DNA from: Patescibacteria group bacterium
GTDB lineage: Bacteria > Patescibacteriota > Patescibacteriia > UBA9570 > JAHJKD01
Direction of reading: 5' to 3'
DNA length: 59,441 nucleotides
NCBI GenBank assembly: GCA_043798935.1
Contig: JAZDOC010000010.1
Span: 1-59,441 of the forward strand
A program made the position numbers and the translations under genes. Shown here piece after piece: positions 48,192 through 51,858 of the stretch. How positions within the stretch are numbered: the stretch's first letter is position 1; every line of letters starts with the position of its first letter. The notes beneath the pieces are model-generated. The model made no database searches. It was not told the DNA's origin and saw nothing but the letters and a program-made list of their open reading frames with translations.

Positions 48192-49157
48192 TTAAAGATT
48201 AAATTCTTTAACAACTTGAGCTCTTAAAGCACTAAAATCACTTTGGCCCATATCATCAATAAAATGTAAGTGCATGGATCCATCAGAATATGGTCCGTTT
48301 AATCTGATAGGCTGATCATTTGAATCGCCCATTTTATAATATTTGGTTGGACAAGCCAAAATGCTATCGACAAAAGGACCTCGGCTGTGAAGCATTAAAT
48401 GCAAATTATAATTGTCGGCTGAGGATTCACCACCGGTATAGATATTTATATAAGCCACCTGTTCAGTGGGTTGATCTTCCATGATAAACATTACATCTAA
48501 AAAGTATCCGCCATCGGGCCAATTATTATCACCTTCGCAAACCGCTAAATCAGTTTGCATTACATTACCGTAAATTCTAAAAGACCCATTTTGATGACTT
48601 CGATTTTCGCATCTTAAAGCACCTTCACCTTTGGGTATAAAACATTCATTTAGATCGTCTTTATATTGAATATAACCACGGCCACGGACATCACCATTTT
48701 GTAAAACTGCTATATAGGCTACGAGATCAGCCTCTAAACCAGTTAAATAATTATCGAGATTTTTTGCTGAACCGGAAACATCACCGATTAAATAGTGCTC
48801 AGACATAATTTTCGAGGCTTTAATGTCGTTCCATTCTTCGTCACTTATATCATTACCATTATCGGCGCTTGGATCAGATGTATCGGTTGTTCCATTTTCG
48901 TCAGAAGCACTACTGTTAGACTCGGTTATAATATACAAACCGTCGTCAACTGTACTTAGATCTTGGTTATCAGTTAAAACTAATTCTGGAAAATCATTAT
49001 TTTTTTCAGCAATACCATTAATGTTGCTATTTGTATTATTGTTGCTGTTTTTATTATTATTATTCTCATTGTCTTTATTACAATCCGCGCCCACAAATAA
49101 TAATATTGCAAGAAGTGGTAAAATCAAGAATATTTTTTTCATAATTATTTTAATCAA
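48192..49157 (-). CDS. Putative lipoprotein of unknown function (start probably at MKKIF, 49142)
   Basis: LLFVGADC lipobox-like site followed by an Asn-rich linker. Confidence 0.7.
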
Positions 49158-49623
49158 TACTAATTAACTCGGTCTCGAATATTAAAGTAGCATCAGGCGG
49201 AATAATATTTCCAGCGCCACTCGAGCCATAACCCAAATCAGATGGAATGGTTAATTTTCTTTTTTCACCCACCTGCATATCTAATAAACCTTGGTCCCAA
49301 CCCTTAATTACTTGCCCAGCTCCCAAAGTGAAAGAAAAGGGCGTGCCTCTATCGACCGAAGAGTCAAATTTAGTGCCGTCTTCTAAAGTACCAGTATAAT
49401 GTACGCTAATTGTATCTCCGGCTTTAGTTTTTCGATCTCCAGCCCCTGGCTGTAGAACTTCAATTTTTAATTCTTGGTCCATGTTGTTTTGATTAATGTT
49501 TTGATTATCATTATTGTTAGCAGGCACAGCCTCTTTTTTTACGTCAATATTAATGATGAACAAAAATAAAGCGGCAAAAACTGCTAAGATTATTAAAATT
49601 TTTATAACTAACTTCTTTTCCAT
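49150..49623 (-). CDS. Membrane-anchored FKBP-type peptidyl-prolyl isomerase
   Basis: [41 protein letters not shown]. Confidence 0.96.
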
Positions 49624-49748
49624 AATATTTTAATTAAATTAAATAATTACTTGTTTAACATACTATTTATAGCCATGTTTGTCAAAATTGTATAAGCCGT
49701 ATTTTAAACAGTGGTGCAAAAGATATTAATTGAATAAATATTTATCAA

Positions 49749-49776
49749 AAGCCCACGCCCATAAAGGGCGGGGCTT
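49749..49776 (-). terminator. Hairpin downstream of the rSAM/SPASM gene
   Basis: AAGCCC-A-CGCCC-ATAAA-GGGCG-GGGCTT with an adjacent A-tract. Confidence 0.65.
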
Positions 49777-49797
49777 ATATTGTTATAGAGACGATGA

Positions 49798-50883
49798 TTA
49801 TTTTTTATCTAATTGCTGATAGTGGCACATCTTCGGCTTTTTATGAGTAAAGTCCCAAATATGCATGGAGCCACCTTTGCATTCAGGCCAAAAATCACAT
49901 TTTTTACAATCCACACAAGCAGTGCGATCTGGGTTTCTAAAATATGCAAATTTATTATTCCAAATTTCAGAAAAACGATCTTTCCGAACATTGCCCTGGA
50001 TTAATTCCGGCAACCGAGGGACGTTCGGACAAACGAAAATATCACCATTATGCAATATCGAGCCCGTATTAATGCCGGTATTACAGATAAAGAAATTACG
50101 TCTGACTTCTCTTTCATAATCTAATCCTAAAAAACCAGCACAACCATAAGTGATGTCTACTTTTTTGTTTTGTTTTCTTTTAATTTTAATAAAATCTAAC
50201 AACTGTTTTAATTGTTCTGGGGTAAGAAGAAGTTTATTATTTTCAGCTCTGCCAATCGGATCAATATTCATTACGCGCCATGACGTGATGCCCAGAGGCA
50301 AAAAAGTTTCATACATTTTTTCTAAATTATCTATATTGCCTTGATGAACACTAGTAGTGATTTGCAAATCTTTTAAAAAATCTGCTTTGGCCAGTAGCTT
50401 TACGGCATTAACGGCGTGTTCATAGGCACCAGAAACATTTCTGAAATCGTCATGAATTTTCCCGATCCCATCAATGCTAACAACGACAGTGTCCATTCCT
50501 GATTTCTGCATATTGCACACAACTTGCTCATCAACTAAAAAGCCATTCGTCACCATGCCCCAACTAAAACCCAGCTTTTTTGCATAACTCATAACCTCAA
50601 AAATATCTTGTCTTAGCAATGGCTCCCCGCCGGTTATGGCTATCATAATTTTTTTTGCATCGTAATCCTGTGCTATTTCAAAAAATGTTTTTTTTATTTC
50701 GGCTGTAGTTAATTCGTTGGTATGAACTTTTTTACCGGCATTGCTACCGCAATGAGCACAATAAAAATTACAATTTAAAGTACATTCCCAAAATAAATAA
50801 TTAAGTTTATGTTCTTTTCTTAATTGTTCTTTATATAAAGACCAGGCTCTAAGCTGACCGGTTTTAAGAATCCTTTTTAGCAT
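49798..50883 (-). CDS. Radical SAM/SPASM-domain peptide or protein maturase (TIGR04133-like)
   Basis: LFWECTLNCNFYCAHCGS (CX3CX2C), ITGGEPL, WGMVTNG, SIDG, PIGRA; SPASM domain CNTG..SI..NGDI..CP..QGN..C..C..C. Confidence 0.9.
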   Translation of the reverse strand: MLKRILKTGQLRAWSLYKEQLRKEHKLNYLFWECTLNCNFYCAHCGSNAGKKVHTNELTTAEIKKTFFEIAQDYDAKKIMIAITGGEPLLRQDIFEVMSYAKKLGFSWGMVTNGFLVDEQVVCNMQKSGMDTVVVSIDGIGKIHDDFRNVSGAYEHAVNAVKLLAKADFLKDLQITTSVHQGNIDNLEKMYETFLPLGITSWRVMNIDPIGRAENNKLLLTPEQLKQLLDFIKIKRKQNKKVDITYGCAGFLGLDYEREVRRNFFICNTGINTGSILHNGDIFVCPNVPRLPELIQGNVRKDRFSEIWNNKFAYFRNPDRTACVDCKKCDFWPECKGGSMHIWDFTHKKPKMCHYQQLDKK

Positions 50884-51139
50884 TTGCTTTCTTTCTTCGT
50901 CGTTTACGTTTAATAAAAACGACTAAACCAATTATTAAAGCTGCTAAAATTAATATTGGCAACCCGAAAAACATAATAATTCTAAATATTATTTCGGCTG
51001 GTTCTAGCGACGGATTAACTCCATATGCTAATTGAAACGACGGTGCTTCATTAAAAGATTGCACCATGTCAGTATTAGAGGCTACGGCGCTGTATGCAGA
51101 GGCAAAAAACATGGTTATAAAAGCTAATATTTTTTTCAT
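50864..51139 (-). CDS. Small exported single-pass membrane protein with an AYG motif; probable rSAM substrate
   Basis: Signal peptide (..AVA|S), short ectodomain with QLAYGV, TM helix, KRKRRRKK tail; overlaps the rSAM start by 20 nt. Confidence 0.75.
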   Translation of the reverse strand: MKKILAFITMFFASAYSAVASNTDMVQSFNEAPSFQLAYGVNPSLEPAEIIFRIIMFFGLPILILAALIIGLVVFIKRKRRRKKANAKKDS

Positions 51140-51162
51140 ATTTTTACTATATCATAATCAAT

Positions 51163-51858
51163 CTATTTTCTCAAATAATGCTGCCTTTTTGATTCTGGCA
51201 ATTTTTCAATAGCATATCTTAGCATTGTGCGCGGCATGGTCTTATAATTTCTATTTAAATATGCTTCCAATAATTTTTGATCATGTTTTCCGGCTTCTCG
51301 GAGCATCCAGCCTACAGCTTTGTGAATTAAATCATGCTGATCGTGAAGCAAAATATCAGCTAGCTTAATGATGTCTGTAAAATCTTTTTCTCTGATAAAA
51401 GCCAAGCACGTAATCATGGCAATACGCTTCTTCCATAAGTGATTAGATTTAGCAAACTGATATAAAATTTTGCGATCTTTATTTAATAAATAATCACCCA
51501 CAATATGCGGACAAGTGACATCTACCAAATCCCAATTATTAATATTATTATAATTTTTAATGTATAAATTATAAATATCCGTCTTTAATTTTGCATCGGC
51601 TTTTTTATATTTATAAACTAAAATTAAAAGACCGGTCATGCGGTATTCATGAAACTTTCCGTTTAACATTATTTGAACGTCGTTTAACGATAGAGACATG
51701 TATTTTTTTGCCAAAACACGCAACTGTGGCACTTTAAGCCCTAAAAAAATATCTCCTTCGCCATATTCGCCTTTTGCGGTTTTAAAAAAACGCTGTAATA
51801 ATTTTGCCTGATTAGGATTAGCTAATTTTTGTAAATTATTTTGTAATTCTTTTAGCAT
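51163..51858 (-). CDS. DNA alkylation repair protein (AlkD-like)
   Basis: FFKT..GEYGEGD.FLG..VP, NNWDLVD, LIHKAVGWMLRE.GK, MPRTMLRYAIE. Confidence 0.93.
   Translation of the reverse strand: MLKELQNNLQKLANPNQAKLLQRFFKTAKGEYGEGDIFLGLKVPQLRVLAKKYMSLSLNDVQIMLNGKFHEYRMTGLLILVYKYKKADAKLKTDIYNLYIKNYNNINNWDLVDVTCPHIVGDYLLNKDRKILYQFAKSNHLWKKRIAMITCLAFIREKDFTDIIKLADILLHDQHDLIHKAVGWMLREAGKHDQKLLEAYLNRNYKTMPRTMLRYAIEKLPESKRQHYLRK

Follow-up and report, generated by a model that had tools for sequence, protein, structure and literature searches.

A radical SAM/SPASM enzyme and a YG-bearing membrane microprotein as a candidate maturase-substrate pair in Patescibacteria

Results and discussion

What does a radical S-adenosylmethionine (SAM) enzyme with a SPASM domain act upon when its gene overlaps that of a 91-residue membrane protein in the small genome of a member of the Patescibacteria? 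The question is raised by a stretch of 59,441 nucleotides (hereafter the window; contig JAZDOC010000010.1 of assembly GCA_043798935.1, which comprises 1.09 Mb in 24 contigs and is 90% complete). On the minus strand of the window, to which all feature coordinates below refer, the gene of the 91-residue protein (50864..51139) is followed by the gene of a 361-residue radical SAM/SPASM enzyme (49798..50883). The pair of genes is conserved, and the dipeptide Tyr-Gly (YG) is the one conserved feature of the ectodomain of the small protein. Judging from these sequences, the enzyme and the 91-residue protein are very probably a maturase and its substrate, with the enzyme acting on YG. What is new here is a compact radical SAM/SPASM and YG cassette, the predicted substrate of which is a signal-peptide-bearing, C-terminally anchored microprotein.

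The predicted exported microprotein

The 91-residue protein consists, in order, of MKKILAFITMFFASAYSAVA, SNTD...FQLAYGVNPSLEPAE, a hydrophobic stretch and KRKRRRKKANAKKDS. Residues 1-20 (51080..51139), composed of MKK, a hydrophobic core and A-V-A, read as a Sec signal peptide, with a hydrophobic segment at residues 4-20 and predicted cleavage before S21. The ectodomain has about 29 residues, no Cys and one A-Y-G (A38-Y39-G40, 51020..51028) in the context Q-L-A-Y-G-V-N-P, which is the sole YG site, lies where the earlier note had placed it, and is the proposed site of modification. A Kyte-Doolittle window delimits a hydrophobic transmembrane (TM) segment at residues 48-79 (50903..50998) that includes G71, a position conserved in the partner alignment, and the protein ends in a polybasic tail predicted to be cytoplasmic, KRKRRRKKANAKKDS (50867..50911). 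The open reading frames (ORFs) and the Pfam matches agree with an earlier note, made from the window alone, that had described a gene with these four segments overlapping a radical SAM/SPASM gene. The overlap is 20 nt, so that the last codons of the tail lie over the start of the enzyme gene, which by its position appears to be translationally coupled to the gene of the microprotein.

The protein belongs to a conserved partner family and matches no family of Pfam or NCBIfam above cut-off. Matches to Nif11 and NHLP precursors are absent, TIGR04134 gives no match at E <= 10, and there is no lipobox Cys, as expected from the earlier statement that the partner is neither a Nif11 peptide nor a lipoprotein; nor does TIGR04134 match any protein of the source genome or of five genomes with distant relatives of the enzyme. 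In a search of the ESM Atlas with the partner, the best feature score was 0.82 and the structure rows named no family. The earlier note had proposed a scan of the genome for further substrates of the same design. When 921 small hydrophobic ORFs were screened loosely for signal peptide, YG, TM segment and polybasic tail, five passed; the 91-residue protein alone has this architecture, and the other four resemble multi-TM proteins or proteins with an internal YG.

Conservation of YG beside relatives of the enzyme

The loci compared number 86, namely L007-L009, the best 80 of 202 confirmed relatives in genome contigs, and three from a search of the phylum. The enzyme ORF was recognized in 77 of them (L052, L062, L063, L067, L078, L080, L090, L097 and L098 were dropped), and removal of four duplicates left 73 distinct enzymes, 27 with at least 54% identity to the source enzyme and 46 more distant. 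For the close loci, a partner was defined as an adjacent upstream ORF on the same strand, of 40-200 residues, with a hydrophobic segment and with YG outside that segment. Such a small membrane protein is present beside 23 of the 27 close enzymes; the scripted count was 24, and L040 was taken out of it because the matching ORF there lies 405 bp downstream and is unrelated. Conservation of YG beside orthologous enzymes had been named beforehand as a check that could refute the proposal of an enzyme-substrate pair, and its outcome favors the proposal. The start of the enzyme gene and the stop of the partner gene overlap by 4-35 nt at many loci.

When 24 partners are aligned, at a mean column identity of 29%, conservation of 90% or more is reached in three columns only, those of Y39, G40 and the TM glycine G71. 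Over 50 YG sites in 34 distinct partners, position -3 relative to Tyr is Q at 28 sites, position -1 is L (31), A (5), M (5), E (4), K (3) and also V, and position +2 is P (22), V (13), M (5), I (3), S (3) or another residue, for a consensus of Q(-3)-x-[L/A/M]-Y-G-[P/V]; two to four sites are present in 11 of the 34 partners. The background frequency of YG in the source genome is 0.0025 per residue, which corresponds to a chance probability of 0.20 per 90 residues and 0.07 per 28 residues; because the loci share kinship, the conservation is given without a p-value. A profile of the partner alignment found 11 matches in a collection of 5.8 billion proteins, all of them unnamed or "hypothetical" and too few to indicate the size of the family. 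Six of these partners are new and all six contain YG, and P0123 is an already known P-Y-R variant.

Arrays of two to four tandem partners stand upstream of one enzyme gene at L028:1635-2535, L043:1660-2520 and L027:962-1936. The three partners of L028, like the three of L043, have near-identical signal peptides and anchors, and their ectodomains are divergent except for YG(P). The organization of the tandem partners appears RiPP-like, following the leader/core logic of precursors of peptides that are made by the ribosome and modified post-translationally (RiPPs). A third conserved gene, such as one for a Y protein or a RiPP recognition element, was not found in the loci surveyed. Partners of one sub-clade (L041, L042, L044, L047, L049) are without a signal peptide; their YG motifs stand at the very N-terminus, and two TM helices with a basic loop between them come next, which implies a predicted N-out topology without cleavage.

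The more distant enzymes have more varied neighbors. Seventeen of the 46 are accompanied by a TM protein with YG, often downstream of the enzyme gene (in Methanocella, in Chloroflexota and in some members of the Candidate Phyla Radiation, CPR), and ten by a non-TM protein with at least two YG. The non-TM neighbors include lipoproteins of Myxococcota/Planctomycetota with YG just past the lipobox and proteins of Clostridia with V-Y-G-P-P repeats.

Affiliation of the enzyme

Pfam recognizes Radical_SAM, SPASM and Fer4_12 in the 361-residue enzyme. The radical SAM cluster motif CX3CX2C (C38-N-F-Y-C42-A-H-C45, then G-S; 50749..50772) is invariant in the 73 sequences, and Pfam together with the alignment places C267, C285, C326, C329, C335 and C353 in the SPASM region (49825..50085). 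The protein has no signal or TM segment, and is predicted to be cytoplasmic with oxygen-sensitive clusters. The best match in NCBIfam, over the full length, is TIGR04133 (rSAM_w_lipo, graded "hypoth_equivalog"), with 326.3 bits versus a curated cut-off of 425 bits. The next scores are those of AhbD (172 bits), TIGR04053 (153), NirJ2 (149), MftC (145) and TIGR04103 (137), with TIGR03913 lower at 106. The earlier assignment to TIGR04133 is therefore right as to the closest family and fails as to membership: because 326 bits falls under the cut-off, the enzyme lies outside TIGR04133 proper, and by its sequence it represents a TIGR04133-like sister group. True TIGR04133 enzymes on plasmids of Parabacteroides and Treponema score 607.9 and 451.4 bits. 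All 73 relatives from genome contigs match TIGR04133, the best with E = 4.8e-114, which is weaker than the E = 1.8e-135 of a barely passing member; therefore none of them would be expected to reach the cut-off. In a 40-row IQ-TREE phylogeny, the source enzyme groups with CPR sequences in a clade that has support.

The systems of TIGR04133 and TIGR04134 ("radical SAM-associated putative lipoprotein") in Parabacteroides distasonis and Treponema saccharophilum are of uncharacterized function. The cassette resembles them in the full-length match of its enzyme, in 52 of 55 family-conserved positions (versus 42 of 55 common to the enzyme and a Nostoc TIGR04103 enzyme, and 39 of 55 common to it and MftC), and in a partner gene that is immediately upstream and encodes an exported protein with YG near the mature N-terminus. 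That the partners of TIGR04133 enzymes carry YG, as the earlier note had said, was seen in two true TIGR04134 lipoproteins beside true TIGR04133 enzymes, which have C-E-Y-G-S-P or C-Y-G-M-P just past the lipobox. The cassette differs in that its enzyme is below the cut-off and in a separate clade, and in that its partner of 91 residues has no lipid but a C-terminal TM helix as its anchor, and is without a TIGR04134 domain. Another shared feature is the motif C-x2-C-x5-C-x-G-G-S-x-H of TIGR04133-type enzymes, from which the fourth Cys of the SPASM motif CX2CX5CX3C is missing and in which a conserved His341 follows shortly after; these sequences suggest an auxiliary cluster in which one site is open or ligated by His. 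Family-invariant G46, W202, E257, R261 and H341 are shared with the two closest PlpX-class relatives, from Nostoc and Aureibacter; a third, from Agathobacter, has two of the five, and MftC and a Rhizobium radical SAM enzyme lack them, which is a weak argument, drawn from few sequences, for the splicease reading given below.

A search of solved structures returned neither a splicease nor a closely related enzyme, the best match being CteB (5wgg, E = 1e-20). Complexes predicted for the enzyme and partner residues 19-62, with SAM and three 4Fe-4S clusters included, scored 0.43, 0.72 and 0.28 in separate runs, compared with 0.45 for an unrelated control, and are not used as evidence.

Beyond the window, the same genome contains a second radical SAM/SPASM-like gene (G000:C13:4861-6427), the 345-residue product of which scores 185 bits to TIGR04133 and is 36% identical to the 361-residue enzyme. 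It overlaps a downstream gene, the 180-residue product of which has a signal peptide, several TM helices and a short ectodomain that includes D-V-Y-P-A-N-R-D (Tyr, no Gly), and the two may be a parallel maturase-substrate pair. A third radical SAM gene of the source genome lies at C13:8047-9072.

The proposed reaction at Tyr39-Gly40

Passages of four reports (PMC11414181, PMC11626197, PMC10849128, PMC9811515) describe spliceases as radical SAM/SPASM enzymes by which a tyramine equivalent is cut out at XYG, where X varies, so that an alpha-keto-beta-amide remains; they also describe binary systems that have no Y protein and whose enzyme is activated by a leader helix. The products are presented there as inhibitors of Ser and Cys proteases (PMC11414181, PMC11626197, PMC9811515, PMC10849128), and parts of three of the reports recount the discovery of further spliceases by mining YG-rich ORFs beside radical SAM/SPASM genes (PMC11414181, PMC11626197, PMC10849128). 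The spliceases comprise PlpX and PcpX (type I, with a Y protein) and RhaX, RasX and RcsX (type II, binary), of the TIGR04103 class. Scott et al. (2022, Chem 8:2659) reportedly confirmed 27 splicease pairs by experiment and most likely already saw such YG-rich neighborhoods. TIGR04103 is presumably the same family as IPR026482. It is in IPR026482 that a passage of PMC11002830 places PlpX.

By analogy with these systems, the modification of the 91-residue protein could well be the excision of tyramine at Tyr39-Gly40, a proposal that leads the alternatives considered here and is held tentatively. Like a splicease, the enzyme has CX3CX2C and a SPASM domain and is encoded beside a precursor with [L/M/A]-Y-G, and the cassette, like the binary systems described in part of PMC11414181, has two components and no Y protein. 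The Nif11 precursor that adjoins a true TIGR04103 enzyme of Nostoc ends in G-G-R-G-S-I-A-L-Y-G-L-P-P-E-L-F, and its ALYGLPP resembles the Q-x-L-Y-G-P-x-P consensus of the partner family. Unlike the PlpX class, to which it has about 26% identity, the enzyme scores 137.3 bits versus the TIGR04103 cut-off of 725 bits and has one SPASM Cys fewer. The partner, unlike the precursors of spliceases, has a Sec signal peptide instead of a Nif11 or NHLP leader, and its product would stay anchored in the membrane rather than be released; since binary spliceases without a Y protein exist, a Nif11/NHLP leader or a Y protein appears dispensable for the class.

In the proposed sequence of events, the enzyme would act on Tyr39-Gly40 of the 91-residue protein in the cytoplasm, where a tyramine equivalent would be cut from the Tyr and the backbone rejoined, as at the XYG sites of spliceotide precursors. 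The modified protein would then be exported by Sec and its signal peptide cleaved, after which the C-terminal helix and the polybasic tail would hold it in the membrane. Because the enzyme is predicted to be cytoplasmic and the mature YG to be outside the cell, the two could meet only before export, and the N-terminal signal helix may double as the leader that binary spliceases require. Since the mature partner would be membrane-anchored, the modified ectodomain of 29 residues would be shown on the cell surface. The full form of this scheme, in which a Sec signal peptide serves as a RiPP leader in ultra-small CPR/Patescibacteria and an unreleased type I membrane microprotein displays an electrophilic alpha-ketoamide a few nanometers above the surface, is a conjecture and unlikely to be right in every part.

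Several observations weigh against this reading. TIGR04103 ranks sixth for the enzyme, behind AhbD, TIGR04053, NirJ2 and MftC, and the fourth SPASM Cys that the enzyme lacks is retained in sequences of the PlpX class and MftC, so that its SPASM motif is unlike theirs. In the 40-row tree, which contains one true TIGR04103 sequence, the PlpX clade, TIGR04133, the source group and MftC form a polytomy. The earlier note had called the PlpX-type spliceases related, and by these scores the enzyme has no specific closeness to the PlpX class. Four of the 27 close loci have no adjacent YG: L008 and L046, with M-P-Y-R; L040, the true neighbor of which has H-Y-L-A-P; and L029, where a YG-bearing ORF remnant (K-Y-G-P-P-P...A-Y-G-I-Q-P) lies 1.1 kb upstream, past an inserted ORF on the opposite strand. 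Nineteen of the 46 distant enzymes, mostly from gut Bacilli, have no YG neighbor by the criteria used. A search of the literature found no paper naming TIGR04133 and no experiment tying a TIGR04133-type enzyme to a reaction. Nor was there a paper joining a splicease with a lipoprotein, Bacteroidetes or a ketoamide, and among the titles listed there was nothing specific on SPASM RiPPs of Patescibacteria. As to L029, the opposite-strand ORF between the truncated YG ORF and the enzyme gene (L029:1178-2323) encodes 338 residues and looks as if its insertion had disrupted the partner.

The main alternative to tyramine excision retains the enzyme and its substrate and invokes other radical chemistry at Tyr, namely a three-residue cyclophane (from the ring to C-beta of the +2 residue), a C-C or C-O cross-link, epimerization or side-chain oxidation; it is judged somewhat unlikely. 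Radical SAM/SPASM enzymes that form Tyr cyclophanes on Tyr-x-Asp and Tyr-x-Arg are described in part of PMC11002830, as are triceptide cyclophane synthases (three-residue cyclophane-forming enzymes or 3-CyFEs, YxdB, YhhB) that act on short, often repeated motifs with an aromatic residue. Repeated short aromatic motifs are typical of triceptide precursors, and some partners have two to four YG sites; the noncanonical SPASM motif marks the enzyme as no plain copy of the PlpX class, and the lack of resolution deep in the tree leaves room for another activity. The motifs of triceptides conserve the +2 residue (Asp, Arg, Asn, Ser), whereas the partners have an invariant +1 Gly and a variable +2 residue, which is the opposite of what selection for an i to i+2 cross-link would produce, and their -1 residue varies (L, A, M, E, K, V) as does the X of XYG. 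Because the +1 Gly is invariant and the -1 and +2 positions vary, splicing at XYG fits better than an i to i+2 cyclophane. A thioether would find no Cys in the ectodomain of the 91-residue partner, and no triceptide-synthase family is among the top 25 NCBIfam matches of the enzyme. MftC, the mycofactocin maturase, acts on the Tyr of a small peptide, which is a C-terminal Tyr rather than that of an internal YG. The enzyme resembles MftC and the AhbD/NirJ radical SAM/SPASM enzymes of tetrapyrrole synthesis in their similar scores (145-172 bits), and differs from MftC in the absence of mftA-like and mftB-like genes and in the lower number of common positions given above.

The rank of the tetrapyrrole enzymes directly after TIGR04133 also speaks for an improbable explanation in which the small protein is left unmodified and serves as a membrane tether or regulatory subunit, while the enzyme acts on a cofactor or metabolite like its AhbD and NirJ relatives; the distant enzymes without a YG neighbor could be counted in its favor too. 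The rank of AhbD carries little information because a PlpX-class splicease also has AhbD among its next-best families, where after the close relative TIGR03913 it is tied with TIGR04133 (154 versus 152 bits). A tether would have no need of an invariant YG within a hypervariable ectodomain, the mature YG would be across the membrane from the enzyme with contact possible only before export, and the lipoproteins, TM microproteins and soluble repeat proteins found beside these enzymes have only the YG motif in common. It is very improbable that YG, the TM helix and the basic tail form a C-terminal sorting signal of the sortase, exosortase or rhombosortase kind to which a radical SAM gene is adjacent by accident. 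The TM segment and tail do match models of LPXTG, PEP-CTERM and Loki-CTERM weakly (E 0.04-1.5), but these matches are below every cut-off and span only a generic TM segment and basic tail; the distance from YG to the TM segment varies, some partners have two to four YG, lipoprotein and soluble partners carry YG without a C-terminal anchor, and the conserved neighbor is a radical SAM enzyme and not a sorting protease. On these grounds the sorting signal was rejected.

In a system related to the spliceases, an Aureibacter plasmid (L116:653-2856) encodes a radical SAM enzyme that has 48% identity to the TIGR04103 enzyme of Nostoc. Its gene comes after those of three DUF1843 peptides that start M-Y-Q-V-L-Y-A-A-G (Tyr-Ala, not Tyr-Gly), and it may be related to the PlpX class and act at another site.

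If tyramine excision at YG is the reaction, rewriting of the peptide backbone (to a beta-amino acid and ketoamide) would no longer be confined to peptide natural products that are released but would extend to surface proteins anchored in the membrane, and would reach the metabolically minimal Patescibacteria. These bacteria keep few specialized functions, and the molecules of the interface between symbiont and host are little known. A tethered ketoamide could, as the earlier note had supposed for host proteases, block proteases at that interface, or it could bind host surface proteins by reversible covalent bonds for attachment; the tandem copies, in which YG is invariant and the ectodomain around it hypervariable, would then amount to diversification of targets. 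TIGR04133 and TIGR04134 of gut Bacteroidales and spirochaetes, together with more than 1000 related metagenome clusters, would gain a testable function, and a two-gene cassette with a target of roughly 29 residues would make an easy co-expression system and possibly a compact splice tag. If the chemistry differs, the invariant YG would still mark a new enzyme-substrate family.

Distribution of the cassette

Among 3115 candidates, 1141 protein clusters match the enzyme at E <= 1e-40, and the few close homologs to which a source gives a name are named Patescibacteria, Moranbacteria, Peregrinibacteria, Paceibacterota or Microgenomates. A full-length ortholog is present in two of 40 relatives (55% and 43% identity), and in a sample of 400 further genomes of the phylum three have the cassette enzyme at E <= 1e-60. 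The cassette is widespread in CPR metagenomes, and rare and patchy per genome. The earlier remark that RiPP-like chemistry is unexpected in a reduced genome needs correction: by the number of clusters, of which the few with a source name are CPR/Patescibacteria, such cassettes are not unique in small genomes, and per genome they are rare. Because identities to the source enzyme reach 67% in other families, horizontal spread of the cassette is suggested. Several contigs with CPR-type cassettes among L027, L037, L042-L044, L047, L049 and L054 are titled "uncultured Gammaproteobacteria", L051 is titled Micrarchaeota, and the titles Muribaculaceae or Bacteroidaceae are given to small gut metagenome-assembled genomes that have Bacilli-type enzymes; these odd titles are likely to be errors of labeling or binning in the source records.

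Transcription and flanking genes

A consensus scan finds a sigma-70-like site with 10 of 12 matches (TTGAGA-17-TATAGT with TG, i.e. an extended -10; 51174..51146) before the gene of the 91-residue protein. The extended -10 promoter of the earlier note is thus present as a sequence, and the number of promoter-like sites in the region (11, versus 8.8 +/- 2.6 from shuffles) is within expectation, so that the site alone is not significant. The TATAGT hexamer ends 7 nt before the ATG, which leaves no room for a Shine-Dalgarno sequence (51139-51151), and for this reason the message may be leaderless; alternatively, transcription may run into the gene from that of the DNA_alkylation family (51163..51858), which lies upstream on the same strand and ends 23 nt away. 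The terminator of the earlier note is well supported as an intrinsic one: an 11-pair G+C-rich hairpin (49776-49749) followed by UUUUGAU (49745..49776 in all) folds, within 49740-49800 of the minus strand, with -21.3 kcal/mol and z = -4.35, and none of 200 shuffles is as stable. It is absent from the consensus scan because its tail has four U only. A self-contained unit, as proposed earlier, is plausible with a promoter-like site and a terminator flanking the pair, and read-through from the DNA_alkylation gene may occur.

Downstream of the cassette, 48192-49157 encodes a 321-residue Asn-rich putative lipoprotein without a Pfam family, and 49150-49623, directly next to the cassette, a peptidyl-prolyl isomerase of the FKBP type that is anchored in the membrane (Pfam FKBP_C, E = 1e-38). 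The FKBP gene is absent beside the cassette in the other loci inspected, and the residue next after YG in homologs is usually Pro.

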